Shown: positions 39,851 to 62,905, numbered from the stretch's first letter. The stretch is DNA of 64,000 nucleotides from Bacteriovorax stolpii (GCA_945860415.1 CAMAQA010000006.1:959-64958), one strand, 5' to 3'. Numbers and translations: made by a program. Notes: a model not told the origin generated them from the letters alone.

Positions 39851-39877
39851 TTTCCAAAGGATACTTAGAGGTTTCAC

Positions 39878-40195
39878 ATGGCTTTCAAGAGAGAAGACAA
39901 GGCTGAAATGGGCGGTCGCGAAGATCGCGGTTTCGAAGGTAAGGACGGAGATGATCGCGGCGGTCGTCGTGGTGGTGGATTCCATCGCAAGAAGGTGTGC
40001 CGCTTCTGCTCCGACAACGAATACATCATGGACTACAAGGATGTCCGCATGATGCAGTCGTTCGTCTCCGAGCACGGCAAGATCGTGCCGCGCCGGATTT
40101 CCGGCAACTGCGCGATGCACCAGCGCAAGCTGACCTCTGCGGTCAAGCGCGCTCGCAACATCGCCCTCGTTGGCTACGTTTCGTCCGGTTTCTAA
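39878..40195 (+). CDS. rpsR: 30S ribosomal protein S18
   Basis: [59 protein letters not shown]. Confidence 0.95.
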
Positions 40196-40200
40196 TCCGA

Positions 40201-41231: not shown

Positions 41232-41265
41232 CCATCTCAATTTACTGATAAAGGTGGACTTTCAA

Positions 41266-41712
41266 ATGCAGGTCATTCTTCGCGAAAACGTCGAAAATCT
41301 GGGTCGAGTTGGTGACATCGTCAAGGTGTCCGACGGTTATGCCCGGAATTTCCTGATTCCCCACAACCTGGTTTTCATCGCTGACGAAAGCAACGTTCGT
41401 GCGATCGAGCACAATAAGAAGCTGCTCGAAAAGCGCGCGCAGGAGATGCGCAAGTCCGCTGAAGAGCAGGCTAAGTTGCTTTCGACTGTCATCGTGTCGC
41501 TGGCCCGCAAGGTGGGCGAGCACGACAAGCTTTTCGGCTCAGTGAGTGCAGGCGACGTCGCCGACGCGCTGGCCAAGGCCGGGCACAAGGTCGAGCGTCG
41601 CTGGGTGCAGATCGTTGATCCGATCAAGACTCTCGGCACGCACAGCGTGGCCGTGAAGCTCCTTCCCGAAGTGAGCGCGACTATCAAGGTCGTCGTGACC
41701 AAGGAAGTCTGA
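41266..41712 (+). CDS. rplI: 50S ribosomal protein L9
   Basis: MQVILRENVENLGRVGDIVKVSDGYARNFLIP matches the L9 N-domain. Confidence 0.95.
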   Translation: MQVILRENVENLGRVGDIVKVSDGYARNFLIPHNLVFIADESNVRAIEHNKKLLEKRAQEMRKSAEEQAKLLSTVIVSLARKVGEHDKLFGSVSAGDVADALAKAGHKVERRWVQIVDPIKTLGTHSVAVKLLPEVSATIKVVVTKEV

Positions 41713-41745
41713 TCCGGATCGCCCGGAATCGTGTTTTGATTTGAG

Positions 41746-41783
41746 CGGGCATCTTCGAGTCCTCGGAGATGCCCGTTTTTTTG
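41746..41783 (+). terminator. Rho-independent terminator downstream of rplI
   Basis: GC-rich hairpin CGGGCATCTTCGAG / CTCGGAGATGCCCG followed by TTTTTTT. Confidence 0.7.
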
Positions 41784-41808
41784 GTGACTTGCAGTTGGGG
41801 GAAGTTCA

Positions 41809-47697: not shown

Positions 47698-48705
47698 ATG
47701 GGATTTATGTCCCAGATTCCAACTGATGTCCGCAGCCTCACGGAAGAAATCCGCCAACGCCGCCAGTTCGTCGATGAGCTCCTCGCGGAGACATCGAAGG
47801 TTGTCGTAGGACAACGGGTGCTTCTCGAACGACTCCTGCTCGCTCTTCTTTGCGACGGCCATGTCCTCCTTGAAGGACTTCCCGGCCTCGCGAAGACACT
47901 GACCATCAAGACGCTCGCTGATGTCATCCACGCGCAGTTTCAGCGAATCCAGTTCACGCCTGATCTCCTGCCTGCCGACCTGATCGGCACGATGATCTTC
48001 AACCCGAAAACCGGCGATTTCACGCCGAAGAAGGGCCCGATCTTCACTCAGCTCGTGCTGGCCGATGAAATCAACCGTGCTCCTGCCAAGGTGCAGAGCG
48101 CTTTGCTCGAGGCGATGGGCGAGCACCAGGTGACCATCGGTGAAACGACCTATAAGATGGCCGATCCGTTCATCGTTCTCGCTACGCAGAACCCGATCGA
48201 GCAGGAAGGCACCTATCCGTTGCCGGAAGCCCAGCTTGACCGTTTCCTCTTCAAGGTGAAGGTCGGTTATCCGAACATCTCCGAAGAGAAGAACATCCTG
48301 AACCGGATGAGCGGCGTCGATGCTCCGAAGGCCGCCAAGGTCTGCAGGCCCGAGCAGATCCTGCAGGCCCGAGAAGTGGCCTCGCGGATCTACATGGACG
48401 AGAAGATCAAGGACTACATCCTGGGCATCGTGTTTGCGAGCCGGTTTCCGGAACGCTCCGGACTGCCCCAGCTCAAGTCGATGGTCCAGGTCGGCGCCTC
48501 GCCGCGAGCGACGATTGCGCTGGCCAGGGCGGCACGCGCGCATGCGTTCATCGAACATCGTGGCTTTGTCACTCCCGAAGATGTGAAGGCGATTGCCTAC
48601 GACGTGCTCCGGCACCGCATCCTCGTGACCTTCGAAGCGGAGGCCGACGGAGTTTCGAGCGAGCAGATCATCCAGAAGATCCTCGAACGTGTTGAGGTGC
48701 CGTGA
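47698..48705 (+). CDS. moxR: MoxR-family AAA+ ATPase
   Basis: GHVLLEGLPGLAKT (Walker A), VLADEINRAPAKVQSALLEAM (Walker B / sensor 1), 335 aa. Confidence 0.9.
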   Translation: MGFMSQIPTDVRSLTEEIRQRRQFVDELLAETSKVVVGQRVLLERLLLALLCDGHVLLEGLPGLAKTLTIKTLADVIHAQFQRIQFTPDLLPADLIGTMIFNPKTGDFTPKKGPIFTQLVLADEINRAPAKVQSALLEAMGEHQVTIGETTYKMADPFIVLATQNPIEQEGTYPLPEAQLDRFLFKVKVGYPNISEEKNILNRMSGVDAPKAAKVCRPEQILQAREVASRIYMDEKIKDYILGIVFASRFPERSGLPQLKSMVQVGASPRATIALARAARAHAFIEHRGFVTPEDVKAIAYDVLRHRILVTFEAEADGVSSEQIIQKILERVEVP

Positions 48706-48721
48706 GGCACGCGGAGGAGCC

Positions 48722-49600
48722 ATGCTGGCGAGCGACCAGATCCGGAAGATCCGGGCCATCGAATTCTCGACGAGGCGCCTGCTCGACGACCTGATGAGCG
48801 GCGGCTTTCGCAGCTCGTTCAAGGGCCAGGGCGTGCAGTTTTCGGAGCACCGGGTGTATGTTCCCGGCGATGACATCCGGCACATCGACTGGAAGGTGAG
48901 CGCGCGCACGCGCGAGCCGCTCGTGAAAAAGTTCGAGGAGGAGCGAGAGCTCTCGGTCCTTCTGGTGGTCGATGCTTCGGCAAGCCTCGCATTCGGCAGC
49001 CGCGAGAAGCTCAAATCGGAGGCTGCTGCCGAGGTCGCGGGAATGCTCGCCTATGCGGCGGCAATGTCGGGCGACAAGACCGGGATGATTCTTTTTTCAG
49101 AGCAGGTCGAAAAGGTGCTGCCCCTGAAGAAGGGCAAGAACCACGTCTCGCGGATCCTCCGCGAGCTCTTCGAACATCGGCCTCGAGGTAGGAAAACCTG
49201 CCTGGCCGACGCGCTCGAGATGGCCGGAAGAGTCATGAAGCACAAGGGCATCGTGATCGTCGTGAGTGATTTCATCGATGAGGAGTACGACATCTCTCTT
49301 CGACGGCTCGCGCGCAGGCATGATGTCGTGGCCATCCATGTGTCGGATCGCCTCGAGTCCGGAATGCCGAAATCAGGGTTCCTGAAGGTGGTCGATCCGG
49401 AGGGCGGGGGCACCCAGGTGGTTGATCCGGGGTCCTACATTTTCCAGCGCTGGCTCAAGGATTTTCACGAGTCGCACCGGACCGACACGGAATCAGCGTG
49501 GAAGGCTGGAAAGGTGGAGTCGGTTCGAATTGATACGCTCCAGGACCCGGCCGACCTGCTCGTCAAGTTCTTCAATGCCCGCGCGAGGAGACGTAGATGA
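48722..49600 (+). CDS. DUF58 protein (VWA-like, MoxR partner)
   Basis: EFSTRRLLDDLMSGGFRSSFKGQGVQFSEHRVYVPGDDIRHIDWKVSAR matches the DUF58 pattern. Confidence 0.85.
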   Translation: MLASDQIRKIRAIEFSTRRLLDDLMSGGFRSSFKGQGVQFSEHRVYVPGDDIRHIDWKVSARTREPLVKKFEEERELSVLLVVDASASLAFGSREKLKSEAAAEVAGMLAYAAAMSGDKTGMILFSEQVEKVLPLKKGKNHVSRILRELFEHRPRGRKTCLADALEMAGRVMKHKGIVIVVSDFIDEEYDISLRRLARRHDVVAIHVSDRLESGMPKSGFLKVVDPEGGGTQVVDPGSYIFQRWLKDFHESHRTDTESAWKAGKVESVRIDTLQDPADLLVKFFNARARRRR

Positions 49601-50574
49601 AGATGTTGTTCGCCCTCGCACTGTTTTTCTCAGCTGCCGGCGCCGCAACTGTCGCTTGGTCCGCGTCAGATGCTGCACCCGTGTTTCTTGCGGAGCGATA
49701 CTATAGTGCGCCGCAGTCGCAGAAGGTTGACCCGCCCATTCGCGTGGGTGACATCCTGCGATTCAGATGGATCGGAGAACAAAAGCCACCCACCAGTGCC
49801 GTGGAGATCGCTCCTGCCGAGGAGGGCAGATCGCTCTCGGAGCTGGGATGGGAGGTCTATTCGCATCCCAAGGATGATGCCACGTCGGCGTTCTCGGTGA
49901 TTCCGATCCGGCCGGGAGAAGTGGAGCTGCCTGCGCTGGCTGTTCGCGATGCGGAGAAGCGCGTCCTGGGCGTCACCAGGCCCGTCAAAATGAGTGTTGC
50001 TCCGGCAGCATCGGCAGAAGAACTCTCGAAGAAGGCTCCGGACTTTCTTCCTCCGGTGGCGATGCGCCTGCCCTGGTCGTGGATCATCGCCCTGCTGGCG
50101 ATCGGAGTGATACTTGCCGGAGTGGTCGTTGCGGTCCTCTGGAGAACGAGCCGAAAACTTCGCAAGCGTCCCCCCTTGAAGGCTTCAGAGCCGTCGCGTG
50201 CACGCCTGCCTGAAGATGAAGAGGCCCTGCGCCTGCTCGAGATGCTGGAACAGCAGCGTCTCTGGGCCGAACAGCGGTTCAAGCCGCATTATTTCGGAGT
50301 TTCGGAAGCCCTGAAAAAGTACATCGAAAGGCGTTTTGGCTTCGATGCCGCTGAATCGACTACTCGCGAAATGCTGCTCGGCCTCAGCGAAAGAGGTATC
50401 GACCGCGAACGCCTTGGCGGCCTTTCATCTCTCTTCGAGAAGCTGGATCGAGTGAAATTCACCGACTTCGTTCCTGAGGAACAGGAGTGCTCCTGGATCC
50501 TGGAGGAGGCGAGGGGCTGGATCCGGGCCACGCGCCAGGCGGCACCCAAAACCGGAGGAGTGAATGCGGTTTGA
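49597..50574 (+). CDS. DUF4381-like membrane protein of the Bat operon
   Basis: Signal peptide, one internal TM helix (WIIALLAIGVILAGVVVAVLW), conserved position between DUF58 and BatA. Its ATG overlaps the DUF58 stop (ATGA). Confidence 0.5.
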   Translation: MKMLFALALFFSAAGAATVAWSASDAAPVFLAERYYSAPQSQKVDPPIRVGDILRFRWIGEQKPPTSAVEIAPAEEGRSLSELGWEVYSHPKDDATSAFSVIPIRPGEVELPALAVRDAEKRVLGVTRPVKMSVAPAASAEELSKKAPDFLPPVAMRLPWSWIIALLAIGVILAGVVVAVLWRTSRKLRKRPPLKASEPSRARLPEDEEALRLLEMLEQQRLWAEQRFKPHYFGVSEALKKYIERRFGFDAAESTTREMLLGLSERGIDRERLGGLSSLFEKLDRVKFTDFVPEEQECSWILEEARGWIRATRQAAPKTGGVNAV

Positions 50575-51547
50575 GTCCTGGCCATTCCTGCTGGCGCTGA
50601 TTCCGCTCTTCCTGCTTTTCAGGATCTGGGTTGCCCGCAATTCGCCGCCGAGCCTGGCTTTTCCGATTCCCGTTGCTGCCAAGGCCGGCGCGCGTGATCC
50701 GGTGCCCTATTCCGTGCTGCTTCGGCTCCTCGGAGTGGCGCTTCTGCTTCTGGCGCTTGCCCGTCCCCAGGCCAGCTTCACTCGCACCGATCGGTCGGTG
50801 GGGGGCATCGACATCATGATGGTGATGGACGTCTCGGCGAGCATGAACATCGAGGACCTGGCTGATCGTCCGCGGCTTGATGTCGCGAAGGAGACGATGG
50901 AGGCGTTCATCAAGGGGCGTGAGAATGATCGAATCGGTTTTCTGATCTTCTCGGGAGAGCCGCTGACGCTTGCGCCGCCGACACTCGATTATGGGCTGGT
51001 GCTCAAGGCCCTTCGAGATGCCAAGATCGGCATCCTCAAGGACGGAACGGGCATTGGTGATGGACTCTCACTGGCCATCAACCGGCTCCGGAATTCGACT
51101 GCCAAAAGTCGTGTGATCATCCTGCTGACGGATGGTGACAACAACGTAGGACAGGTGGACCCCGGAACTGCAGGCGAGCTGGCGGCAGGTTATGGAATCC
51201 GCGTGTACACCATTGCCATCGGTCGCGAAGGCCGGGTTCGGCTTCCGATCCGCACCCAGGGAGTGTTTGGCAATCCAGTCACCACCTATCAGTACTTCGA
51301 TAACGCCTTGAACCCCGAGCTGCTGAAGAAGATCGCCGAGCTGACCCGGGGCAAGTTCTATCGAGTCACCGAAGAAAGCTCGCTCGGATCCGTGTTCAAG
51401 GAAATCGACGGCCTTGAAAAGACGGTGATCCAGTCCAAGAGCGAGGTGCGCCATGAAGAGCGCTTCTCGCTGCCGCTCATCCTGGGAATCGGAGTGCTCC
51501 TGGTGGAGCTCCTGCTCTCTCGCCTGCTCTGGAGGTTTGCCCTGTGA
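50564..51547 (+). CDS. batA: VWA-domain membrane protein BatA
   Basis: Two N-terminal TM helices, then a VWA MIDAS motif DIMMVMDVSASM ... ILLTDGDNN. Confidence 0.8.
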   Translation: MRFESWPFLLALIPLFLLFRIWVARNSPPSLAFPIPVAAKAGARDPVPYSVLLRLLGVALLLLALARPQASFTRTDRSVGGIDIMMVMDVSASMNIEDLADRPRLDVAKETMEAFIKGRENDRIGFLIFSGEPLTLAPPTLDYGLVLKALRDAKIGILKDGTGIGDGLSLAINRLRNSTAKSRVIILLTDGDNNVGQVDPGTAGELAAGYGIRVYTIAIGREGRVRLPIRTQGVFGNPVTTYQYFDNALNPELLKKIAELTRGKFYRVTEESSLGSVFKEIDGLEKTVIQSKSEVRHEERFSLPLILGIGVLLVELLLSRLLWRFAL

Positions 51548-53337
51548 CCTTCGGCGCGCCGAAAAATCTGCTGCTGCTTCTGCTTCCCGCGCTGCTCTTT
51601 CTGGTCCTGCGCTGGGACCTCGCGCGTCAGACCCTGCTATTTGGATCCTGGATCGCACCGAAGTTCTGGTCGAGGCTGGTTCCGGGCTGGCGCCCACGGG
51701 CCCGGCTCCACAAGGCGACTCTCTTTTGCCTCGGCCTCGCCTTCGTGGTTCTTGCCATGGCTCGACCTCAATGGGGCCATCGCGAGGAGACCGTGCGTGC
51801 GAGCGGAGTGGACGTCATGATCGTGCTCGACGTGTCGCGGAGCATGGATGTGGAAGACGTGGTTCCGTCACGGATGAAGAAGGCCCGACACTGGATTCGG
51901 AATTTCATCGACCAGATGGCCGGAAACCGAGTAGGGGTCGTGGCATTTGCGTCGAGCAGTTACGTCGCCTGTCCGCTGACGACGGATCTGGATTACGTCG
52001 TCGAAAGCGTCGACATTCTCGGGCCCTCGTCCGTCCTGAACCAGGGCACCGACATCGGTCTTGGGCTCACGACGGCACTTGCGGCGCTCGATCGAGGAGC
52101 GGAGTCTCCGGACTCCGAGGCCGAGCGCCAGGGTCTGGCTTCGAAGGCCGTCGTCCTCATCAGTGACGGCGAGGACCACGAGGCGGCTTTTGCGGAAGCG
52201 GCATCCCAGCTGGCAAAAAAGGGAGTGAAGCTCTTCGTCCTTGGAGTGGGTACCGAAAAGGGCGGGCCCATTCCGATTCGCGATGAGATGGGTAAGCTCG
52301 AGGGTTACAAACGTCAGGGCGCCGAGCCCGTGGTGAGTCGGTTCGATTCGACGAGCCTCGAGCGTATCGCGGCCGATGGCTCAGGAAAGTACTGGAACAT
52401 GAGCCAGTCGGAGTCCGAGGTTCGCGAAGTCCTGGGGGCGCTGGGCGCTTTGGACCGAAAGCAGTTCCAGGAACGCAAGACTCGTGTGCCGATCAGCCGC
52501 TATCAGTGGCCGCTGGCGATTGCAGTCGTGCTGTTCGTGCTCGAGCTGGCCCTGCCTCTGACCACGATCGCAGGCGCGAAGAGCTACTCCGCTCTCGTTT
52601 TTCTGCTGGTAGTGCTGCTTTCAGGGCGCGCCGATGCAGCGACACCGATTGAAAGCTACGTCAAGAACCGTGAAGGACTGAAGCTTTTCTCGAAGGAAGA
52701 GGTACAGGAAGCAGAGAAGAAGTTCGGAGAAGCGCAGTCCGCGGATCCATCGAGCGTGGAGCCGCAATTCAACCTCGGAGTCGTTCAGCTCAAGAAGGGC
52801 GACGGCCGGTCCGCGATCCACAGCTTTGAAAAGGCCGCCCGGGGAGCGGGAATGGAGGGTAATGCAGCACTTTCCGCGCGTTCGCTCTACAACCTGGGTT
52901 CTGCCTATGAGTTGGACAAGCAGGAGGGAAGTGCGCTCAGGAGCTTTGCCGCCGCAGTGAGGATGGCAGAGCTGGCCAAAGACGAGGCGCTGGCAACTGA
53001 GGCGAGAAAACGAATCCAGAAAATTCAGGAACAGCAACAGCAGCAACAGAAGCAGAAGGGCCAGCAGTCGCAAGATCAAAAGGGTGGCCAGAGCGGCGAG
53101 CAGCAACAGCAGTCTGAAGGCGGCTCCCAGGACAAGAACGAGCAGAAGCAGCCACAAAATGCCCGCCAGTATGAAGACCCCTCGGTGAGCCGCCGCCGGG
53201 AGTTCAAATCCGACAAGATGAGTCCGGAAGATTCCGAACGGGTCATGTCCGAGCTCTCTGCTCGCGAAAAGCAGCTTCAGGCCAAGCTCAAGAAACAGCG
53301 TGGAGCACGACAGGCGAACAATGATAAGGACTGGTGA
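51544..53337 (+). CDS. batB: VWA plus TPR protein (BatB/BatC fusion) with a Q/K/E-rich tail
   Basis: GTG start overlapping the batA stop (GTGA). MIDAS DVMIVLDVSRSM ... VLISDGEDH, C-terminal TPR repeats, and a poly-Q tract QEQQQQQQKQKGQQSQDQ. Confidence 0.8.
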   Translation: MTFGAPKNLLLLLLPALLFLVLRWDLARQTLLFGSWIAPKFWSRLVPGWRPRARLHKATLFCLGLAFVVLAMARPQWGHREETVRASGVDVMIVLDVSRSMDVEDVVPSRMKKARHWIRNFIDQMAGNRVGVVAFASSSYVACPLTTDLDYVVESVDILGPSSVLNQGTDIGLGLTTALAALDRGAESPDSEAERQGLASKAVVLISDGEDHEAAFAEAASQLAKKGVKLFVLGVGTEKGGPIPIRDEMGKLEGYKRQGAEPVVSRFDSTSLERIAADGSGKYWNMSQSESEVREVLGALGALDRKQFQERKTRVPISRYQWPLAIAVVLFVLELALPLTTIAGAKSYSALVFLLVVLLSGRADAATPIESYVKNREGLKLFSKEEVQEAEKKFGEAQSADPSSVEPQFNLGVVQLKKGDGRSAIHSFEKAARGAGMEGNAALSARSLYNLGSAYELDKQEGSALRSFAAAVRMAELAKDEALATEARKRIQKIQEQQQQQQKQKGQQSQDQKGGQSGEQQQQSEGGSQDKNEQKQPQNARQYEDPSVSRRREFKSDKMSPEDSERVMSELSAREKQLQAKLKKQRGARQANNDKDW

Positions 53338-53340
53338 CGC

Positions 53341-55269
53341 GTGAAGACTCTCCGGACGCTCCTGCATCAGTCGGTGTTCATCGCGGTTCTGGCTTCGGCA
53401 GCGATCGCCGGCGACCCGGTTTTTCAGGCTTCCGTGGATCGCGCCACGATCGGGCAGGACGAGTCCGTCGCATTGAAGTTCCGCATCGTGACCGATGGCA
53501 TGGGGGGATCCGAGGAGCCCGAGTTTCAGGCGCCCGACTTCGACCTCGTCAACCAGTACTCGAGCGTGTTCGTCGAGTCGTATTACGAGAACGGCAAGTT
53601 TGGAGCACGAAACAACAGGCAATTCACGAAAGTCCTTCGTCCAAACCGGACCGGCGAGCTGACGATTTCGGGCATCCAGCTCAAGGCCGGTGGCCGCACA
53701 TTCTCTCATCCGCCGATTCGCGTGGTTGTCTCCGCAGGAGGTCGAGGAACTCCGCCTCCGCAGGGTTACGGCGGCAGTGGCGTGGGTCTTCGCGGCGCGG
53801 GCAAGCGCCCGCGCGGAGCGACGATTCCCTTTTTCATTCGCGCCGAGGTGGACCATGCCCGAGTGGTCAAGGGCCAGCAGATTGTCGTCAGCTACTTCCT
53901 TTACCAGCGGGTACGCGCCCACAACATCCAGGTCGACAAGTATCCGGTGCTCGATGGATTCCTTCGCGAAGATCTTGAACTTCCGATCCTCGGTCAGCGA
54001 TTGACTGATCGAGAATCGGTGGTCCTGGACGGAGTGGCGTATGAGCGCGTGCTCCTCGCGCGCTATGCCGCCTATCCACTGAAGGAGGGCAGGCTGTCCA
54101 TCGACTCGATGGCGATCAAGGGCAATTATTTTGCACCGCCCGGCGGAATTGCGGACTCTCAGGATCCGATCGAAGATGCACTGCAGAACTTCATGCAGCA
54201 GTTACAGCCGCGCGTGTGGAGCCATCGCTCCGATCCGGTGCCTGTTGAGGTACAGCCCCTGCCGCTCGATGGTCGTCCGGCAGCCTTTGCAGGTGGGGTT
54301 GGTGACTTCGAAATCACATCCACGGTCGACAAGACCACGGTCCGGGTGAATGAACCGGTCACGCTGGTACTCAAGATCGAAGGACGCGGCAACACGGCTG
54401 CCATCGGGCAACCGCCGGTGAAGTGGCCTGCTGATCTGGAGGTATACGAGACGAAGTCCAGGGTGGCCGGCTCTCCAGGCGGAGTTTCGGCAAAGATCTT
54501 CGAGATCCTGCTGATCCCGAGACGGGGGGGCAGCTTCACGCTTCCGGAGCAGGAACTCGCCTACTACTCGCCGCAGGAGGGCGCCTACCGCACGAAAAAG
54601 GCTCCCGCGCTCGACATTGTCGTGGAGGGACAGGGGGACGGTTTTGTTCCAAAGTCGAGTTCCGCCACGTCGTCGACGACATCATCCATCACGCCGGGCG
54701 GTGATGGTCTCCTCCTTCCGGAACAATGGACGGGTCGGCGTTCAATGTCATCTCCTCTCGCACAGTGGATCGTCCAGGCGCTGGTTCTTCTCAGTGGCCT
54801 CCTTCTCGCTGGAGTCGGAGCGCACAAGATCTGGCGTCGTCGACACCTGCTCGGTTCGGTTCGCTCGGCGCTGACCCGCCAACGACGCGGATCGGCGAGC
54901 ACGCCCTGGACAGCCTTGCGGAGCCAGTGTGCGCGGGCCGATCGGTTTTCCGCAGGCGAGCTCGTGGCTTTTTACCAGTCGATCGCGCAGGGATTGTATT
55001 CTGAGCTGGAATCACGCCTGTCTCTGCCGGCACGGGCATGGTCTCGTGCTGAGATTCGACGCCAGATCGAAGAGGCATCGCATGACGGCAGTTGGATGCC
55101 CGATTCGGTGCTTTGGCAGAGGATTGAGAACATCCTCGAATATTCCGAAGCACTTCAGTTCTCAGGCGCGCTCCAGGAGCAGGAGGCGCGCAGCCGGATG
55201 GAGACCACCTTGAATGAAGTGGAGCGGATCCTGGCCTTGCTTCAGAAGGAACCGGAAGGAGGGTCATGA
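53341..55269 (+). CDS. batD: BatD-like (oxygen-tolerance) protein
   Basis: Signal peptide, large periplasmic domain, C-terminal TM helix (LVLLSGLLLAGVGAHKIW) and cytoplasmic tail; 642 aa. GTG start. Confidence 0.65.
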   Translation: MKTLRTLLHQSVFIAVLASAAIAGDPVFQASVDRATIGQDESVALKFRIVTDGMGGSEEPEFQAPDFDLVNQYSSVFVESYYENGKFGARNNRQFTKVLRPNRTGELTISGIQLKAGGRTFSHPPIRVVVSAGGRGTPPPQGYGGSGVGLRGAGKRPRGATIPFFIRAEVDHARVVKGQQIVVSYFLYQRVRAHNIQVDKYPVLDGFLREDLELPILGQRLTDRESVVLDGVAYERVLLARYAAYPLKEGRLSIDSMAIKGNYFAPPGGIADSQDPIEDALQNFMQQLQPRVWSHRSDPVPVEVQPLPLDGRPAAFAGGVGDFEITSTVDKTTVRVNEPVTLVLKIEGRGNTAAIGQPPVKWPADLEVYETKSRVAGSPGGVSAKIFEILLIPRRGGSFTLPEQELAYYSPQEGAYRTKKAPALDIVVEGQGDGFVPKSSSATSSTTSSITPGGDGLLLPEQWTGRRSMSSPLAQWIVQALVLLSGLLLAGVGAHKIWRRRHLLGSVRSALTRQRRGSASTPWTALRSQCARADRFSAGELVAFYQSIAQGLYSELESRLSLPARAWSRAEIRRQIEEASHDGSWMPDSVLWQRIENILEYSEALQFSGALQEQEARSRMETTLNEVERILALLQKEPEGGS

Positions 55270-56561
55270 AAACCGGAAGCAGGATTGCCGTTGTCGGAAG
55301 TGGAATTGCCGGGATGTCGTGCGCCTATTTTCTGGGCCGCTCACATGAGGTCACGCTGTTCGAGAAGGACTCGAGAATCGGCGGGCACTCCAACACGATC
55401 ACGGTGAATGCTCCGCGCGGCCAGGCGATCTTCGATACGGGCTTCATGGTCTACAACGAGGTGACTTACCCTTGCCTGACTCGCTTGTTTGGTGAGCTCG
55501 AGGTTGCCACCCAGCCGACCGACATGTCCTTCAGCGTCCAGTATCGTCCTGCCCGACTCGAGTACTGCGGGTCAGGGTGGAACGAGCTCTTTGCCCAGAG
55601 GCGGAACCTCTTCAGCCCGCGCCATTGGCGAATGCTGCTGGCGATCGATCGATTCAACACCGAAGCGGTGAGGCACCTGCGCGATGCTGCGCTCGAGCGT
55701 CGAATCGAGGCGATGACTGTTCGCGAGTTCGTGGATCATCATCGGCTCGGCGAGGATTTTCTTGATCGCTTCCTGGTGCCGATGAGCTCGGCCGTGTGGA
55801 GCACTCCCCGCGACCGGATGCTGGAGTTTCCGGCCCTGACCTTGATCCGGTTCTTTCATAACCATGGTTTTCTGGGTCTGCACACGCAGCACCCCTGGCG
55901 AACGGTGACGGGCGGATCCCGCTCCTATGTGAGCAGGATCACCGCCGGGTTCGCCGACCGTATTCGGAGCGGAGACGCCGTGCTCAGGGTCGCGCGCTCG
56001 GATGAAGGAGTCACCCTTCGCACCGCCTCAGGCACTGAGTCGCGATTTGATGCGGTCGTGCTGGCCTGCCATGCTGACCAGTCTCTTTCACTTCTGGATT
56101 CGCCGACAGCCCGAGAGTCAGCACTTCTCGGCACTTTTCGGTACCAGCCCAATCCGACGGTCGTCCACACCGATACCTCGGTGCTTCCGCGAAGTCGCCG
56201 TGCCTGGTCCTCATGGAATTATCGCGTCGAGAAGGATGGGGCAGCATCGACGCATTACTGGATGAATCGGCTCCAGTCGCTGCCCGGCGAAGAGCAGGGA
56301 AGACACGAGTTCATCGTGAGCCTGAATGATCCCGGAAAAATCGATGAATCGAAGGTGCTTCAGCGCATTGGTTATGACCATCCGCTATTCAGCCTGGATG
56401 CAGTCCGCGCGCAGTCGGAGCTGCCTGGACTGAACCGCGAAGGGGCGAGCACTCGAACGTACTTTTGCGGCAGCTATTTTCGATACGGTTTCCACGAGGA
56501 TGCCCTGATGTCTTCCGTCGGGCTGTGCCGGCAGCTGCTGGGAGCGGACTTTTGGAACTGA
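55266..56561 (+). CDS. FAD/NAD(P)-binding oxidoreductase (amine-oxidase-like) of the DUF1365/CFA-synthase cassette
   Basis: Dinucleotide-binding IAVVGSGIAGMSCAYFL...LFEKDSRIGGH. GGAGG RBS. Its ATG overlaps the batD stop (ATGA). Confidence 0.8.
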   Translation: MKTGSRIAVVGSGIAGMSCAYFLGRSHEVTLFEKDSRIGGHSNTITVNAPRGQAIFDTGFMVYNEVTYPCLTRLFGELEVATQPTDMSFSVQYRPARLEYCGSGWNELFAQRRNLFSPRHWRMLLAIDRFNTEAVRHLRDAALERRIEAMTVREFVDHHRLGEDFLDRFLVPMSSAVWSTPRDRMLEFPALTLIRFFHNHGFLGLHTQHPWRTVTGGSRSYVSRITAGFADRIRSGDAVLRVARSDEGVTLRTASGTESRFDAVVLACHADQSLSLLDSPTARESALLGTFRYQPNPTVVHTDTSVLPRSRRAWSSWNYRVEKDGAASTHYWMNRLQSLPGEEQGRHEFIVSLNDPGKIDESKVLQRIGYDHPLFSLDAVRAQSELPGLNREGASTRTYFCGSYFRYGFHEDALMSSVGLCRQLLGADFWN

Positions 56562-57343
56562 AGCAGTCATCACTCTATGACTGCAGCATCCTGCATGTGC
56601 GGCTCTGGCCGAGACGCCACCGCCTGAAGTACCGATTCTTCTGGTTCGCGCTCGATCTCGACGAGGCCGCCAGTCTACCTCGAGCCGGAATTCTCGGAAC
56701 GGGACGATGGAGTCTTTATCGTTTCCTCGAGTCCGACCACCTGGACCTGCGAGGCAGGGCAATTCTCCCGGGAAGCCTCAAGCGCGAACTTCTGGCCCTC
56801 GTTCGGAATTCCGCAGTGGAGTGGGATGGATCTCGGGCGATCCTGCTCACTCAGGCCCGATTTCTTGGCTACGTTTTCAATCCGGTATCGTTCTATTTCA
56901 TGTGGAACTCTGATGGCACACGCGCCGCGGTGGTCGCAGAGGTCGGAAATACATTTGGAGAATTGAAACCCTACGTCCTGGGACCAGTGACCGACAACGG
57001 CGGAGACTGGTGCCTGCGGGTACCCAAGCACTTTTATGTCTCGCCCTTCACCGACCTCGAGACGGAATTTGAGTTTCGAGTCGAATGGCCGGCGGATCGA
57101 CTCCTGATCGATGTTGATGATTTCAAGGCAGGCGAAAAGATCCTGGTTTCTCGGATGGAGGGATCGCGAACCGCCTGTGCGACTGGTTCCTTGCTCTGGA
57201 GGACGCTTCGGTTTCCATTCGTCACCCTGCAGATCATTTTCCTCATCCATTGGCATGCGCTCTTGCTCTTTCTCAAGCGGGTGCCGTACTTTGCCAAAAA
57301 TGACAGGAAAGACCTTCAACGCGGGGTGATGAGGCCCCACTGA
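56552..57343 (+). CDS. DUF1365 family protein
   Basis: SSLYDCSILHVRLWPRRHRLKYRFFWFALDLDE matches the DUF1365 N-terminal pattern. No ATG is available, so the start is a TTG at 56552 or a GTG at 56525; either overlaps the upstream gene. Confidence 0.65.
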   Translation: MELKQSSLYDCSILHVRLWPRRHRLKYRFFWFALDLDEAASLPRAGILGTGRWSLYRFLESDHLDLRGRAILPGSLKRELLALVRNSAVEWDGSRAILLTQARFLGYVFNPVSFYFMWNSDGTRAAVVAEVGNTFGELKPYVLGPVTDNGGDWCLRVPKHFYVSPFTDLETEFEFRVEWPADRLLIDVDDFKAGEKILVSRMEGSRTACATGSLLWRTLRFPFVTLQIIFLIHWHALLLFLKRVPYFAKNDRKDLQRGVMRPH

Positions 57344-57344
57344 C

Positions 57345-58625
57345 ATGGCTCTTCAAAAGGCTCAAGTCCGCGCCGTGCAACCCAAGGCAACGATCTATCA
57401 AAGGCTGCTCATTCATGCGCTGACAGGAATGCGCCGGGGTCGCCTCTCGATCGAGCTTCCGGACGGCGGCAATCTGGTCATCGGAGCAGGCGAGCCGGGA
57501 GGTGTCGATGCCTCAATGAAGGTCGTGGATGGGAATTTTTTTCGACGGTGCGTGCTTTTCGGCGACATCGGTTTCGGTGAAGCCTTCACCGAGAACGAGT
57601 GGATCTCTGAATATCCATCGCAGGTGGTGGAGTTCTTCATCGCCAATGTCGAGGATGCCCCCGGCCTTTCTGGCAGTCGCCGCAAGTGGGCGCCAACGAA
57701 TTTGATGGGCTGGGTCAATCGTTTTCGGCATCTCGCACGCCCCAATCACCTGTCCGGGTCGCGGCAGAATATCCGCGAGCATTACGATTTTTCGAACGAT
57801 TTCTTCAAGCTCTGGCTCGATCCGACGATGACGTACTCCTCGGCTTATTTCAGCTCTCCGGAGGTCTCGCTCGAGGACGCACAGCTGGCGAAGATCGACC
57901 GCCTCCTCGAGCGGCTCGAAGTCCGTCCGGGCCTCCATATTCTGGAGATCGGATCCGGCTGGGGCGCCTGCAGCATGCGTGCTGCAGAGAAGTACGGATG
58001 CAAGGTCACCACTCTCACGCTTTCAGAAGAGCAGCGCGCAGAGGCCATGAAGCGGATTGCCGAGCGCGGGCTGTCTGATCTCGTCGAGGTCCGCCTCGAG
58101 GACTATCGAAAGACCGAAGGACGCTTTGATCGAATCGTCTCGATCGAGATGATCGAGGCGGTCGGCCATGAGTTTTTCGAAGACTATTTCTTCCAGTGCC
58201 ATCGCCTCCTCAAGCCGGACGGTCTTCTTGGAATCCAGGGCATCCTGTGCCCGGATGCGCGGTACGAGGAGTTCCGGAAACGGGTGGACTGGATCCAGAA
58301 GCATATTTTTCCAGGAAGCCTGCTTCCTTCCTTCGGAAGGATCCAGGAGGCGTTGCGCAAGACCGGAGACCTGGGGCTCCATTCGTTCGAGGACATGGGG
58401 CTTCACTATGTCGAGACGCTCGAACGCTGGAATCGTTCTCTGCTATCTAAGCAGGCGGAGATCCGTGCGTTGGGATATGATGATCGGGAGATCCGCCGCT
58501 GGAGCTACTACTTCAACTACTGTGCGGCAGCCTTTGCGATGAGGAACATCACCGTGGCGCAGATGGTCTTTACTCGTCCCAACAATCGCAATCTTTGCCG
58601 TCTTTCGAGGGCGGGCCAGGCATGA
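57345..58625 (+). CDS. Cyclopropane-fatty-acyl-phospholipid synthase-family SAM methyltransferase (paralog 1)
   Basis: HYDFSNDFFKLWLDPTMTYSSAYF...LEIGSGWGACSMRAAEKYGCKVTTLTLSEEQ...RLEDYR matches the CMAS/PF02353 pattern. Confidence 0.85.
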   Translation: MALQKAQVRAVQPKATIYQRLLIHALTGMRRGRLSIELPDGGNLVIGAGEPGGVDASMKVVDGNFFRRCVLFGDIGFGEAFTENEWISEYPSQVVEFFIANVEDAPGLSGSRRKWAPTNLMGWVNRFRHLARPNHLSGSRQNIREHYDFSNDFFKLWLDPTMTYSSAYFSSPEVSLEDAQLAKIDRLLERLEVRPGLHILEIGSGWGACSMRAAEKYGCKVTTLTLSEEQRAEAMKRIAERGLSDLVEVRLEDYRKTEGRFDRIVSIEMIEAVGHEFFEDYFFQCHRLLKPDGLLGIQGILCPDARYEEFRKRVDWIQKHIFPGSLLPSFGRIQEALRKTGDLGLHSFEDMGLHYVETLERWNRSLLSKQAEIRALGYDDREIRRWSYYFNYCAAAFAMRNITVAQMVFTRPNNRNLCRLSRAGQA

Positions 58626-59656
58626 GCTGGGTGGATGCTGCTCTCGAGAAGGATCTTCTTCCGGACTGGATGATCCGGCTCGGCATTCGCAGGCTATTGC
58701 GAGAGCGCCTTGTCGAGATCGATTCGGGAGAGGCCGAGAGGAATCGCCAGCGTTACAGCGAGTACGTTCGGATGCTCAAGAGCAGTCCTCTGGCAGTCCA
58801 CACGCGCGCGGCCAATGAGCAGCACTATGAGGTTCCGACCGAATTCTTCAGGTACTGTCTCGGGCCGCGAATGAAATACAGCTGCGCTCTCTATGACACA
58901 GGCAGCGAGACGCTGGCGGAAGCCGAAGAAAAGATGCTCGCCCTCACCTGTGAGCGCGCCCGTCTGAAGGATGGCCAGGACGTCCTGGAGCTGGGATGCG
59001 GCTGGGGCTCGCTGACTCTCTGGATGGCGGAAAAGTATCCGAACTCGCGGATCACCGCCGTTTCGAACTCGCGAACCCAGAAGCAGTGGATTGATTCGCA
59101 GCTTGAAAAACGCGGATGGAAGCATGTCCGGATCATCACCCGCGACATGAATGATTTCGAGGCCGATGCGTCGGCCTACGACCGTGTGGTGTCGGTCGAG
59201 ATGTTTGAGCACATGCGGAACTACGAGCTGCTGCTTGAAAAGATCTCTCGCTGGCTGCGTCCCGGAGGGCATCTTTTCGTGCACATCTTCGTCCATGCGC
59301 GATTTCCGTACCTGTTCGAGGCGAAGAGCGATTCTGATTGGATGTCGCGGTACTTTTTCACCGGGGGCCAGATGCCTTCCGATGATCTTTTGGGTCAGTT
59401 TCAGTCGCATCTCCGACTGACGGAGCAGTGGCGTGTCAATGGTCGCCACTACGAGCTCACGGCGGAGGACTGGCTTCGGAATATGGACAAAAACAGTCAG
59501 GAGATCGAGCCTCTTCTGGCCTCGGCCTACGGGTCTGGCCAAATGCGCAAGTGGCGCGTCTACTGGCGGGTGTTCTACATGGCCTGCGCCGAGCTCTGGG
59601 GTTTTGCAAAAGGCCAGGAGTGGTTCGTTTCGCACTACCTTTTTACGAAGCCTTAG
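58622..59656 (+). CDS. Cyclopropane-fatty-acyl-phospholipid synthase-family SAM methyltransferase (paralog 2)
   Basis: HYEVPTEFFRYCLGPRMKYSCALY...LELGCGWGSLTLWMAEKYPNSRITAVSNSRTQ... Its ATG overlaps the stop of paralog 1 (ATGA). Confidence 0.85.
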   Translation: MSWVDAALEKDLLPDWMIRLGIRRLLRERLVEIDSGEAERNRQRYSEYVRMLKSSPLAVHTRAANEQHYEVPTEFFRYCLGPRMKYSCALYDTGSETLAEAEEKMLALTCERARLKDGQDVLELGCGWGSLTLWMAEKYPNSRITAVSNSRTQKQWIDSQLEKRGWKHVRIITRDMNDFEADASAYDRVVSVEMFEHMRNYELLLEKISRWLRPGGHLFVHIFVHARFPYLFEAKSDSDWMSRYFFTGGQMPSDDLLGQFQSHLRLTEQWRVNGRHYELTAEDWLRNMDKNSQEIEPLLASAYGSGQMRKWRVYWRVFYMACAELWGFAKGQEWFVSHYLFTKP

Positions 59657-59684
59657 CTAATGTGTTCGCCAAAGGGGTGAGTGC

Positions 59685-61913
59685 ATGGCGAACGGCGAGT
59701 GGGGATCTTCGGCAAGGTTTCAGGCAATTCGCGAAATTCAGGCGAGGAGCCCGCGGAAAATCGCTTTTCCGACGGATGAGGCGGGCCGCCCGCTCCGCAT
59801 CTCGGAGTACTTCGGACAAAACACTTTCAATCTCGAGCAGATGAAGCGAAGGCTTCCGAAGGAAGTCTTTCAAAAGCTCCAGTCCACGATCGAAGCGGGC
59901 AAAAAGCTCGATTTGGAAATCGCCAATACCGTCGCGCAGTCGATCAAGGAGTGGGCTCTTGAGCGTGGTGTCACCCACTTCTGCCACTGGTTCCAGCCGC
60001 AGACCGGATCGACCGCCGAGAAGCATGACGCCTTCGTGTCCTTCGATGGCCAGCAGCGCGTGATTGAAAAGTTTTCGGGATCGCAGCTGATTCAAAGCGA
60101 GCCCGACGCATCGAGTTTTCCTTCTGGCGGAATGCGGACGACCTTTGAGGCGCGAGGCTACACGGCGTGGGATCCTTCGAGCCCAGTGTTCGTGATGGAG
60201 TCGACGAACGGAAAGACCCTGTGCATTCCCTCGGTCTTTCTTTCGTATCACGGTGATGCCCTCGACGAGAAAACCGCACTGATCCGAAGCATGGAAGTTC
60301 TCTCCGAAAAGGCCCGAGACCTTCTTCACCTGATCGGCGACTCGGCCGTGGCGCGTGTGACACCGACCCTCGGCGTGGAGCAGGAGTATTTCCTGATCGA
60401 CCGTGCCTTCGTGGCCCATCGTCCGGATCTGATCATGACCGGACGTTCGCTGGTCGGAGGGCAGCCCCCGAAGGGCCAGCAGCTCGAAGACCATTATTTC
60501 GGCAGCATTCCTTCGCGCGTTCAGGCCTTCATGAGCGAAATGGAGCTCGAGCTGTACAAGCTCGGCGTGCCGGTGAAGACCCGGCACAACGAGGTTGCGC
60601 CGAGTCAGTTCGAGACTGCTCCGATTTTCGAGGAGGCCAATGTTGCGGTCGACCACAACCAGCTGACGATGGAGGTGCTGCGCAAGGTCTCTCTTCGCCA
60701 CCAGTTCCAGGTGCTCCTGCACGAAAAGCCTTTTGCCGGAGTCAACGGCAGCGGAAAGCACTGCAACTGGTCCATGGGCGTATCGGGGCCGGGCTCTGAT
60801 GAAGGAGAAAACCTCCTCGAGCCAGGACGCACTCCGCACGAAAACCTGAGGTTCCTGCTCGTGCTGGTATCGGTGCTTCGGGGTGTCCAGAAGCACGGCG
60901 GCCTGCTTCGCGCCGCGATCGCCTCGTCGGGCAATGACCATCGACTGGGCGCCAACGAAGCTCCTCCGGCGATCATCTCGGTATTCCTGGGTGAGCAGCT
61001 CACGCGGATCCTCGATTCGATCGAGCGGGGAGAGGCCAGCGGAAAGAATACGGACGCTGCCGTATTGAAGCTCGGCGTGAACAAGCTTCCTGAGGTGATG
61101 AAGGACAACACGGATCGAAACCGCACCTCTCCGTTTGCGTTCACCGGAAACAAATTCGAGTTTCGAGCCGTCGGATCCTCCGCCTCGCCGGCATTTCCGG
61201 TGACTGTGCTGAATTCCGCGGTGGCGGAAGCCATGGCTGAAGTCAGCGGGCGCCTGAGGGCCGAAATGGCGGCTGGAAAGGACCGAGACGAGGCAATCCT
61301 CGACGTGGTTCGAGAAATCGCGATCGAAACGAAGGCCATCCGCTTCGAGGGCAACGGCTATAGCGAGGAGTGGGTGAAGGAGGCTGAAAAGCGCGGACTC
61401 CTGAACCTGCGCAAGAGCCCCGAGGCCCTGCTGCAGATGGTATCCGAGTCCTCCAGAAAGCTGATGAGCGGAATGGGGGTGCTCAGTGAAGCCGAGCTGG
61501 TCTCGCGCTGCCATGTGCGCACCGAAAGATACATCAAAAACCTGCTGATCGAGGTGGATACCATCCGCCAGATGGTCGACACTCAGATCCTTCCCGCGGG
61601 ATTCGGTTATCACGGCAGGCTTGCAGGTGAGGTGGCTGCCTGCAGGGCTGCCGGTGTCGATGCTCCCCAGGCGGAAGCACTCCAGAAAATGACCTCGTTG
61701 CTGAACTCTCTCAAGCTCAAGCGCGAAGAGCTCGAGTCCGCCTTCCAGCGTGCAGAGTCGCTGGCAACGGAGGAAGAAAAGGCTGCTGCGCTGGCGGGTC
61801 CGGTGAGCACTCGAATGGCCGAGCTTCGCCGCTCCTGCGACGATCTCGAAGCGGTGATGGCCGACGAGTACTGGCCCCTTCCCAAGTATCGCGAGATGTT
61901 GTTTATCTCGTGA
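59685..61913 (+). CDS. glnN: Type III glutamine synthetase (GlnN-like)
   Basis: 742 aa, the GS-III size. It shows GS catalytic segments in the GS-III arrangement (…GVEQEYFLID…, …KPFAGVNGSGKHCNWS…). Confidence 0.85.
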   Translation: MANGEWGSSARFQAIREIQARSPRKIAFPTDEAGRPLRISEYFGQNTFNLEQMKRRLPKEVFQKLQSTIEAGKKLDLEIANTVAQSIKEWALERGVTHFCHWFQPQTGSTAEKHDAFVSFDGQQRVIEKFSGSQLIQSEPDASSFPSGGMRTTFEARGYTAWDPSSPVFVMESTNGKTLCIPSVFLSYHGDALDEKTALIRSMEVLSEKARDLLHLIGDSAVARVTPTLGVEQEYFLIDRAFVAHRPDLIMTGRSLVGGQPPKGQQLEDHYFGSIPSRVQAFMSEMELELYKLGVPVKTRHNEVAPSQFETAPIFEEANVAVDHNQLTMEVLRKVSLRHQFQVLLHEKPFAGVNGSGKHCNWSMGVSGPGSDEGENLLEPGRTPHENLRFLLVLVSVLRGVQKHGGLLRAAIASSGNDHRLGANEAPPAIISVFLGEQLTRILDSIERGEASGKNTDAAVLKLGVNKLPEVMKDNTDRNRTSPFAFTGNKFEFRAVGSSASPAFPVTVLNSAVAEAMAEVSGRLRAEMAAGKDRDEAILDVVREIAIETKAIRFEGNGYSEEWVKEAEKRGLLNLRKSPEALLQMVSESSRKLMSGMGVLSEAELVSRCHVRTERYIKNLLIEVDTIRQMVDTQILPAGFGYHGRLAGEVAACRAAGVDAPQAEALQKMTSLLNSLKLKREELESAFQRAESLATEEEKAAALAGPVSTRMAELRRSCDDLEAVMADEYWPLPKYREMLFIS

Positions 61914-62839
61914 GCATGGCGCCAGGCGCAAAAGATCAAGGTTCGGTGGTCACCATCGGAAACTTCGATGGTGTCCACCTCGGACATCAGCAGATCATCC
62001 AGGAATGCATTCGTCAGGCTCGCTCGCGCGGGCTTGTGGCCCTGGCCTTCACTTTCTGCCCGCACCCGCAGTCGGTGCTCCGTCCGGAGCGGGCTCCTCC
62101 CCTGTTGCTGGATTACTCCGAAAAAAAGGAGATCCTGCTGTCGCTGGGGCTGGACGATGTGGTGGAGCAGCGCTTTGACGCTGAGTTTGCAGCAACACCT
62201 CCAGAGGAATTCTTCCGCTCGATCCTCCGTAGGTCTCTTCAGGCCAGTTCGATTGTCGTCGGCTATGACTTCAGCTTCGGCCGCGCTCGTTCAGGACATT
62301 TGCAGGTTCTCGAAAATCTCTGTGCTTCGGAGGGCGTGACCCTGACCGTCGTGCCGCCCCAGCGTGTTTCCTCCGAAATCGTCAGCAGTTCGGTGATTCG
62401 AACCCATCTGGGGCAGGGCAGGGTTGCCGATGCCTGTTTGGGCATGGGGCGACCGTTTTTTTATCGCGGTTTCGTTCAGCCGGGGGATCGCCGAGGGCGG
62501 ACCATGGGATTTCCAACGGCCAATCTGGCTTTGGAGAGTCCAGGAAAGCTGACCCTGCCCTTCGGGGTTTATGCCACCCGTTTGACGGCGGATGGGCTGG
62601 AGCGGGCGGCTGCCGTCACGAATATCGGTGTTCGTCCGACATTCCATTCCGGTGGCGACCATCCGGCGCCAGTGCTCGTGGAAACCCATGTGCTGGAGGG
62701 GGCTCCTGATCTTTACGGCCGTGAAGTGAAGGTGGAGTTCATCGATAGGATTCGCAGCGAGCAGAAGTTTTCATCCTTCGCGGAGCTGCAGTCGCAGATT
62801 GCGGCGGACGTTGCCCGAGCTCGTCAAATTCTTGTCTAA
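61910..62839 (+). CDS. ribF: Bifunctional riboflavin kinase / FMN adenylyltransferase
   Basis: VTIGNFDGVHLGHQQII (nucleotidyltransferase HxGH), C-terminal flavokinase GFPTANL...PTFH. The start overlaps the glnN stop. Confidence 0.9.
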   Translation: MSMAPGAKDQGSVVTIGNFDGVHLGHQQIIQECIRQARSRGLVALAFTFCPHPQSVLRPERAPPLLLDYSEKKEILLSLGLDDVVEQRFDAEFAATPPEEFFRSILRRSLQASSIVVGYDFSFGRARSGHLQVLENLCASEGVTLTVVPPQRVSSEIVSSSVIRTHLGQGRVADACLGMGRPFFYRGFVQPGDRRGRTMGFPTANLALESPGKLTLPFGVYATRLTADGLERAAAVTNIGVRPTFHSGGDHPAPVLVETHVLEGAPDLYGREVKVEFIDRIRSEQKFSSFAELQSQIAADVARARQILV

Positions 62840-62905
62840 ACGCCGATTTGCGCAGCATTCCAGCATGCGTTGACACGATTTATCCGGCCCCTCACACTGG
62901 AAGTC

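Follow-up and report, generated by a model that had tools for sequence, protein, structure and literature searches.

The window analyzed here is a 64,000-nucleotide (nt) stretch of DNA from Bacteriovorax stolpii (GCA_945860415.1 CAMAQA010000006.1:959-64958), with positions counted from its first letter. Between 47698 and 62839 it carries twelve consecutive plus-strand genes that abut or overlap one another, as established by an open reading frame (ORF) map and protein-family searches. The 5' half of this array is a Bat operon. It is joined directly to a four-gene cassette that most likely encodes a furan fatty acid (FuFA) pathway, and the array ends with genes for a type III glutamine synthetase (GS-III, glnN) and RibF. 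A first-pass annotation made from the sequence had described this gene order and its tight spacing correctly. It had also proposed that the array is a single envelope/oxidative-stress regulon, and our comparison with relatives points instead to a composite array.

The Bat module comprises six genes, all on the plus strand. The first encodes a MoxR-type AAA+ ATPase (47698-48705; AAA_3, E 1.2e-64; AAA_lid_2, E 8e-24) and the second a 292-residue DUF58/VWA protein (48722-49600; DUF58, E 8.8e-68). An alternative GTG start for the latter lies at 48689, but the ATG at 48722 is preferred because it follows GGAGGAG and because the resulting length equals the gene calls of relatives. The third gene (49597-50574) encodes a 325-residue membrane protein with two hydrophobic segments that is found in nearly all relatives. 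The gene called here earlier is real; its DUF4381 label is not secured, since the match (E 3.7e-4, 21.2 bits) falls below the 27.2-bit cut-off. Next come a BatA-like VWA membrane protein with hydrophobic segments at its N and C termini (50564-51547; VWA_2, E 4.8e-18; VWA, E 1.1e-17), a 597-residue BatB/BatC fusion (51544-53337), and BatD (53341-55269; BatD, E 1.4e-26). The fusion combines VWA (VWA_2, E 2e-19) and TPR matches, and its NCBIfam matches to BatB (E 1e-41) and BatC (E 1e-10) both lie under their cut-offs. MoxR, DUF58, the VWA proteins BatA and BatB, TPR-type BatC, and BatD are thus all present and co-directional, as in a Bat operon. BatE, which would combine TPR and SH3 domains, was not found: none of 13 ORFs has an SH3 domain, and the first cassette gene lies directly 3' of batD.

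The cassette begins with a UfaD-like flavin adenine dinucleotide (FAD)-dependent fatty-acyl desaturase (55266-56561; Amino_oxidase PF01593, E 2.3e-25; NAD_binding_8 PF13450, E 7e-15). This flavoenzyme has an N-terminal GxGxxG-type motif, IAVVGSGIAG, and belongs to the amine-oxidase/phytoene-desaturase fold family; its best PDB match is the amine oxidase LkcE (E 3e-33). It is followed by a UfaO-like DUF1365 protein of 263 residues with a TTG start (56552-57343; PF07103, E 9e-63, model positions 1-233/235), whose length equals that of its relatives and for which no solved homologue was found. Two S-adenosylmethionine (SAM) methyltransferases complete the cassette. CMAS1 (57345-58625) is a two-domain, 426-residue member of the cyclopropane fatty acid (CFA) synthase family (CMAS PF02353, E 4.3e-87), and CMAS2 (58622-59656) is a 344-residue protein resembling coclaurine N-methyltransferase (CNMT; CMAS, E 1.5e-45). 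Pfam profile matches for all four genes bear out the families named in the earlier annotation, and NCBIfam gave no specific model for the cassette proteins. GS-III (59685-61913; GSIII_N, E 3.5e-76) and RibF, a bifunctional riboflavin kinase/FAD synthetase of housekeeping type (61910-62839; FAD_syn, E 1e-46; Flavokinase, E 2e-37; NCBIfam NF004160, E 5e-91, above its cut-off), follow.

Reading the junctions directly places ATGA or GTGA overlaps at 49597, 51544, 55266, 58622, and 61910. Two longer overlaps had each been put at 11 nt. That at 50564 is indeed 11 nt, and that at 56552, where the DUF1365 gene overlaps the ufaD stop, is 10 nt. The widest gap is the 28 nt before GS-III (59657-59684), and the remaining gaps are 16, 3, and 1 nt. 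Outside the moxR-ribF run, gaps of no more than 33 nt occur in about 12 of 22 same-strand neighbor pairs by a crude gene call. Genes in this genome are thus normally packed tightly, yet eleven such junctions in succession are unusual.

The cassette had been called poorly characterized. Its families and gene order, however, match ufaD-ufaO-ufaM, the known FuFA pathway (Lemke 2020, PMC7380195). In that pathway, methylation is the task of UfaM, a SAM methylase resembling CFA synthase (PMC7380195). UfaD (RSP1091), an FAD/NAD-binding enzyme with amine oxidases and phytoene desaturases among its relatives, serves as the desaturase, and UfaO (RSP1090), a DUF1365 protein, puts O2 into the furan ring (PMC7380195). 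Together they convert phospholipid-bound cis-vaccenate to 11Me-12t-18:1, then to 11Me-10t,12t-18:2, and finally to 9M5-FuFA, to which FufM adds a second methyl group (PMC7380195). In Rhodopseudomonas palustris, RPA2571 (ufaD), RPA2570 (ufaO), and RPA2569 (ufaM) have consecutive locus tags and are sufficient for 9M5-FuFA (PMC7380195). In Halomonas, ufaM is consecutive with ufaD and ufaO and yields 11-methyloctadec-12-enoate in E. coli (PMC12089945). FuFAs have been described as membrane antioxidants and scavengers. By family, gene order, and indirect links, the four genes most likely constitute such a pathway, with a FuFA as the predicted lipid product.

Two characterized systems are informative for comparison. 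The genes of R. palustris likewise encode an FAD desaturase, a DUF1365 protein, and a CFA-synthase-type methylase in locus-tag order, with a second SAM methylase in the genome (PMC7380195). There, however, fufM (RPA0924) is unlinked, whereas in the window, where the system is known from its genes, the second methylase lies within the cluster. The window's cluster also differs in its Bdellovibrionota host and in overlapping batD, with no upstream intergenic region. The RSP1091-1087 operon of Rhodobacter (Cereibacter) sphaeroides has ufaD-ufaO followed by a CMAS-like gene, RSP1089. Its ufaM (RSP2144) is unlinked, the products accumulate when ChrR, an anti-sigma factor, is deleted, and the genes have been proposed to defend against singlet oxygen and membrane damage. 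In contrast, no counterparts of RSP1088 and RSP1087 follow the cassette here, the annotated genes between 33 and 64 kb of the window include no extracytoplasmic function sigma factor/ChrR pair, and expression is apparently borrowed from bat.

The two methyltransferases were examined in more depth. CMAS1 matches CFA synthases in the PDB (5z9o, E 3e-59; 6bqc, E 5e-50) over its residues 50-414, corresponding to residues 32-376 of 6bqc. We take the bicarbonate site of the E. coli CFA synthase to consist of C139, E239, H266, I268, and Y317. In CMAS1 the corresponding residues are S, E, Q, I, and Y; the replacements of C139 by S and of H266 by Q, which affect two of the five, argue that CMAS1 is not a classical cyclopropane synthase. 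CMAS2 falls on a CNMT-like branch. The cyclopropanation suggested earlier is unlikely. Gln-266 is kept in all six cassette-linked CMAS1 orthologues, which span two phyla. Alignment of the cassette-linked CFA-synthase-type methylases (window, L001, L002, L004, L005, and L006) also shows EAVG in place of EHVG, with S, C, or A at position 139. Gln-266/EAVG may be a signature that parts UfaM-type methylases from cyclopropane synthases. The position of CMAS1 after ufaO matches the order in R. palustris and Halomonas, and CMAS1 is a candidate UfaM, the cis-vaccenate 11-methylase. CMAS2 matches the plant coclaurine N-methyltransferase 6gkv end to end (E 2.4e-73). FufM is 37.9% identical to a homologue, Arabidopsis LIME1/AT4G33110 (PMC10940516). 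Assignment of CMAS2 as a FufM-type second methylase is therefore plausible from these similarities. LIME1 itself is presumably a CNMT-like protein.

To place the array among its relatives, a genome collection was scanned with a BatD alignment, giving 74 loci, onto all of which the window's 13 proteins were mapped for comparison of gene order. Seventy of the loci belong to Bdellovibrionota metagenome-assembled genomes (MAGs) labeled Oligoflexia, Bdellovibrionales, or Bacteriovoracaceae. The first named matches of UfaD had hinted at an affinity of the window to Verrucomicrobia, which was rejected on the strength of its BatD relatives and these 70 loci. About 45 relatives share the order (lipoprotein)-MoxR-DUF58-x-BatA-BatBC-BatD-GS-III-(...)-RibF without the cassette, where x is the 325-residue protein's position, and their BatD-GS-III spacers typically measure -4 to 170 nt. 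Since GS-III and RibF follow batD in these cassette-less genomes, both adjoined bat before the cassette arrived. The same observation removes the supply of FAD to the flavoenzyme as a reason for the arrangement, because ribF follows GS-III whether or not the flavoenzyme is present. A pilB-like gene also follows ribF in relatives, and in some of them GS-III is separated from ribF, or batD from GS-III, by further genes. The cassette was gained and lost independently of bat, glnN, and ribF, and the moxR-ribF order is not conserved beyond what shared ancestry explains.

Only six assemblies, all within one small clade, have the cassette between batD and GS-III. The physical fusion of Bat genes to the cassette is thus found again in five assemblies besides the window. 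Cassette-bearing genomes include GCA_964432565.1 and GCA_041445565.1. The five are the P0122 contig (BatD 89% identical to that of the window, itself the 100% reference), L001 (on the same contig as L008; ~60%), L002/L003 and L011 (~48%), and a JGI contig known from gene calls. The cassette is absent from L081, a 1.59-Mb scaffold (82%), from L007 (61%), L009 (49%), and L012 (47%), and from every more distant relative, with lower BatD identity. In all six cassette-bearing assemblies batD and ufaD either abut or share 4 or 1 nt. The junction is ATGA in the window and L001 and TGATG in L002 (1-nt overlap) and L011 (TGA then ATG directly); for the P0122 and JGI contigs, gene calls likewise give an overlap of 4 nt. 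The ribosome-binding site of ufaD, GGAAGGAGGG, lies inside the last batD codons; in the cassette-less L081, the BatD reading frame is 9 codons shorter at its end.

A neighbor-joining tree of BatA, BatBC, BatD, and GS-III has the topology ((L002,(L009,L012)),(L001,(L007,(L081,window)))), with the cassette-less L013 as sister. Cassette-bearing and cassette-less lineages are thus interleaved. L081 also carries a scar: its 159-nt batD-glnN spacer is a decayed 3' fragment of CMAS2 (85% identity over 75 nt, E 4e-19) that aligns to the window's CMAS2 in two blocks with an internal 63-nt deletion. L007, L009, and L012 retain a shorter piece of the CMAS2 3' end. The region of the window matched by this noncoding relic in cassette-less relatives, the CMAS2 3' end plus the 28-nt spacer, spans 59480-59684. 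Because the C-terminal motif EW.xSH.LF.K is conserved across the CNMT family, the gene is the source of the L081 spacer and not its descendant. Recruitment of an ancestral spacer as coding sequence by CMAS2 was accordingly rejected, as the motif is kept in plant CNMT and the outgroup spacers differ. The simplest history compatible with these sequences would be one insertion of the cassette at the base of the clade and, later, three or more deletions. In a tree, the clade's cassette proteins cluster with one another and not with the verrucomicrobial ones. A recent foreign origin was considered and set aside for want of a compositional signal, the GC content being 0.581 for the cassette versus 0.605 for the bat genes. 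The GC content at third codon positions of three of the four cassette genes (ufaO left out) is ~0.70-0.73, inside the range of the flanking genes.

The cassette also occurs away from Bat. In Verrucomicrobia (Prosthecobacter vanneervenii, L004; an Opitutaceae MAG, L005; and a metagenomic contig, L006) it has no Bat genes nearby and is ordered FA_desaturase-UfaD-UfaO-CMAS1-DUF1475-DUF2062-DUF1295-CMAS2. These versions share the relative order of the four genes, the H266-to-Q replacement, and identities of 55-59% (UfaD), 39-44% (UfaO), 48-50% (CMAS1), and 56-62% (CMAS2). They differ from the window in the 5' FA_desaturase gene, in the DUF1475-DUF2062-DUF1295 genes between the methylases, in the absence of Bat, and in having their own upstream regions. 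Within the clade itself, GCA_039800365.1, whose Bat contig (L047) belongs to it, has a compact UfaD-UfaO-CMAS1-CMAS2 cassette off Bat (L082:2604-6964). This copy has a 273-nt upstream region, lies by Peptidase_C11/TAtT genes, and is followed by genes for an 801-residue protein and one of PP2C-cNMP type. Its location off Bat would reflect relocation, exchange between relatives, or a binning error. The cassette tree places it within the Bdellovibrionota group, closer to L002 than would be expected from its Bat genes. In a further variant (L083:1317-7339), which has neither DUF1365 nor CMAS genes and stands beside a phage-type integrase, the genes after FA_desaturase-UfaD encode an outer-membrane efflux protein and a squalene-hopene cyclase. 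In another phylum, a Melioribacteraceae MAG (WGCV01000002.1; L077:9986-14754) has batD, batE (TPR+SH3), and a gene for a 375-residue CMAS-family methyltransferase, then an overlapping FAD/geranylgeranyl-reductase-like gene and a PAS histidine kinase. This locus is an independent adjacency of Bat, a lipid methylase, and a flavoprotein.

The slot between batD and GS-III has received other genes. An ABC ATPase and a solute-binding/permease fusion occupy it in L058 (7878-10180), and ORFs with no Pfam match do so in L020 (5175-7400) and L024 (11983-15382). Apparent 1-4 kb inserts at this position in L044 and L071 proved to be split GS-III genes and were discarded.

The sequence preceding glnN was inspected for control elements. 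In the outgroup, BatD-GS-III spacers contain a conserved ~45-nt element, GCTAT(A)...(C)AGGG-yTGGCAT-N5-GTCC-N-CCCTCAATTGAAAAC...GGAGA...ATG. It is present in L014-L017, L019, L022, L025 (L025:11886-11963), L027-L029, L033, L037, L039, L045, L049, L052, L055, and L063, all of them cassette-less Bdellovibrionota, and it is absent in the window's clade. The element may be a glnN promoter/operator or leader, and it suggests that a separate control region originally served GS-III. A known riboswitch was rejected as its identity, as there is no Rfam match at E <=1 and support from RNAalifold is weak (-1.03 kcal/mol). A sigma-54 promoter 5' of glnN was likewise considered. The sequence TGGCTACAGTATTGC occurs in L007, but the window, L081, L001, and L009 lack the GG/GC doublets, and this candidate was rejected.

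Upstream of moxR, a gene for a predicted lipoprotein of 1424 residues (43390-47664, plus strand) ends 33 nt 5' of the moxR start. The protein has no Pfam or NCBIfam match and a single N-terminal hydrophobic segment (residues 25-44) with a lipobox-like LSAC. Homologues with 21-60% identity occupy the same place in many relatives, and the protein is conserved there throughout the clade. The Bat-associated array probably starts with this gene, whose product may be a lineage-specific Bat-associated component. The array otherwise resembles the batI operon of Bacteroides fragilis and the bat clusters of Leptospira and Borrelia (PMC3557215), which share MoxR, DUF58, BatA, BatB, BatC, and BatD in canonical order. 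It differs from them in the fusion of BatB to BatC, the lack of BatE, the extra lipoprotein 5', and the lipid cassette fused 3'. Aerotolerance is reduced in a B. fragilis bat mutant (background in PMC3557215), and bat deletions in Leptospira have no oxidative-stress phenotype (PMC3557215).

Although the packing from moxR to ribF is as first described, these genes do not delimit the run. Co-directional genes extend from rpsF to pilB (39359 to beyond 64000) with gaps of no more than 96 nt. Directly 5' of the Bat array are the plus-strand housekeeping genes rpsF-rpsR-DUF2232-rplI-dnaB (39359-43308; gaps <=96 nt), and 3' of ribF is a plus-strand gene for a PilB-like MshEN/T2SSE ATPase (62870-64000; T2SSE, E 3e-70; MshEN, E 2e-20) that is cut by the end of the window. 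Cumulative GC skew rises steadily along the strand that carries this run. Because the run continues through ribosomal-protein genes, dnaB, and pilB, tight spacing here defines no regulon; co-directional packing characterizes the region as a whole. A consensus scan found no plus-strand sigma-70-like site, a result that is uninformative rather than supportive. Terminator-like matches are at background (21 found versus 16.6 +/- 3.8 expected) and equally uninformative; those on the plus strand within 47698-62839 all lie inside coding sequence. For moxR-ribF as a single operon, the evidence is the gaps of at most 28 nt together with two uninformative scans, and promoters inside coding sequence are possible. 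Far from the array, the sole Rfam match within the window is an AdoCbl-II (cobalamin) riboswitch on the minus strand (8729-8803; 39.9 bits versus a gathering score of 36.5), just 5' of a minus-strand ORF at 6712-8601.

Our analysis leads us to propose that the array is composite: a FuFA cassette was gained behind bat, has been deleted repeatedly, and is expressed by read-through from bat, the whole not being a purpose-built regulon. We assign this reading a probability of about 65%. The ancestor would have had a packed leading-strand run of rpsF...dnaB, the large lipoprotein gene, moxR-DUF58-x-batA-batBC-batD, glnN, ribF, and pilB. The four-gene cassette would then have been placed exactly between batD and glnN at the base of the clade, and at least three later deletions would have removed it. 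The encoded pathway would act on acyl chains already in membrane phospholipids. CMAS1, like UfaM, would methylate cis-vaccenate to 11Me-12t-18:1; the flavoenzyme, like UfaD, would desaturate this product to 11Me-10t,12t-18:2; and the DUF1365 protein, like UfaO, would insert an oxygen atom from O2, closing the furan ring to give 9M5-FuFA. CNMT-like CMAS2 would probably add the second ring methyl, as FufM does, yielding the dimethyl FuFA. Because the start of ufaD and the stop of batD overlap, the ufaD Shine-Dalgarno sequence is part of batD, and no intergenic room is left, we infer read-through from the bat promoter(s) and translational coupling to batD. Cotranscription of the cassette with bat is thus likely, and FuFA synthesis would track Bat expression in this clade.

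Several points weigh against this proposal. The host tree is a neighbor-joining tree of four linked genes, computed without bootstrap, and the slight incongruence of the L082 cassette would allow for lateral exchange in place of strict gain and loss. The 11-gene bat cluster of Leptospira is operon-like in appearance yet has independent promoters (PMC3557215), and internal promoters may likewise exist within the present array. The motif CCTTTTT-N-GCCTT-N-TA-AGT, at the CMAS2 3' end (within 59480-59684), is kept in the cassette-less L007, L009, and L012 and may be an internal glnN control element. Regarding chemistry, CMAS1 and CMAS2 are putative orthologues of UfaM and FufM, respectively, on grounds of family membership, gene order, and indirect links. 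The cassette-linked gene RSP1089 of R. sphaeroides is not required for FuFA, and the true ufaM there is unlinked (PMC7380195), so that a cassette-linked methylase is not automatically UfaM.

The regulon first proposed, in which the parts from moxR to ribF are co-regulated as they work together, draws on the eleven consecutive junctions of at most 28 nt with their five start/stop overlaps and on the retention of the whole order in five other assemblies. The aerotolerance role of bat in B. fragilis (PMC3557215) and the O2-dependent FuFA pathway also offer a plausible shared oxygen theme. However, an equally tight run reaches rpsF, rplI, dnaB, and pilB, and GS-III and ribF are bystanders that follow batD in ~45 genomes devoid of the cassette. 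The noncoding outgroup element 5' of GS-III suggests a control region of its own for that gene. The adjacency, moreover, is confined to one small clade; the cassette underwent repeated deletion from arrays that retained bat, glnN, and ribF, and it occurs elsewhere without Bat; CMAS1 lacks two of the residues that we take to form the bicarbonate site of CFA synthases; and no paper that ties Bat to DUF1365 or FuFAs turned up in a full-text literature search. We regard this regulon as improbable. A more serious competitor is neutral hitchhiking, in which batD|glnN is merely a permissive slot in a highly expressed array and the cassette is read through with no functional tie to Bat, its many losses showing that it is dispensable. 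The patchy distribution within the clade, with at least three deletions, would fit this explanation, as would the unrelated genes in the same slot (the L058 ABC transporter and the L020 and L024 ORFs) and the clade MAG with its cassette at another site behind its own 273-nt upstream region (L082). Yet the batD/ufaD overlap or abutment was kept while BatD diverged to 48%, which suggests selection on coupled expression, and the Melioribacteraceae locus provides an independent case of the adjacency. Hitchhiking is accordingly a real possibility, albeit one we hold to be less probable than the composite array with coupled expression.

The remaining alternative concerns the product, which could be another lipid (methyl-branched, conjugated-diene, or cyclopropane) or derive from a non-phospholipid substrate, with CMAS2 acting on something unrelated. 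The dispensability of RSP1089 speaks for this alternative, as does the fact that the closest solved relatives of CMAS2 are plant alkaloid N-methyltransferases. The verrucomicrobial extras (FA_desaturase, DUF1475, DUF2062, and DUF1295) imply varied pathway chemistry, and L083 has UfaD without DUF1365. In contrast, UfaD, UfaO, and an adjacent CFA-synthase-type methylase are the set sufficient for 9M5-FuFA in R. palustris, the Halomonas ufaM beside ufaD/ufaO makes a FuFA precursor, and FufM and plant LIME1 are homologous. A different product therefore appears unlikely.

A functional link of Bat MoxR-VWA envelope systems to in-membrane acyl-chain methylation and FuFA synthesis is a long shot, for which the methylase and flavoprotein genes directly behind batE in the unrelated Melioribacteraceae genome also speak. 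If it held, selection would have preserved the overlapping or abutting batD-ufaD junction even as BatD fell below 50% identity, and the enigmatic Bat proteins would gain a first concrete biochemical partner and a read-out, oxidation-sensitive membrane lipids. On present evidence, the link between Bat and the cassette is local and optional, being clade-specific and repeatedly lost. The clade also offers a natural experiment, in that the one difference between close genomes is whether the cassette stands behind batD, and L081 keeps a datable deletion scar. The ~4.4-kb four-gene unit could be used for FuFA production or testing. More broadly, genes annotated as amine oxidase, DUF1365, and CFA synthase in Bdellovibrionota and Verrucomicrobiota most likely constitute a ufaD-ufaO-ufaM-fufM-type FuFA pathway, which would thereby extend beyond the Proteobacteria in which it has been characterized.

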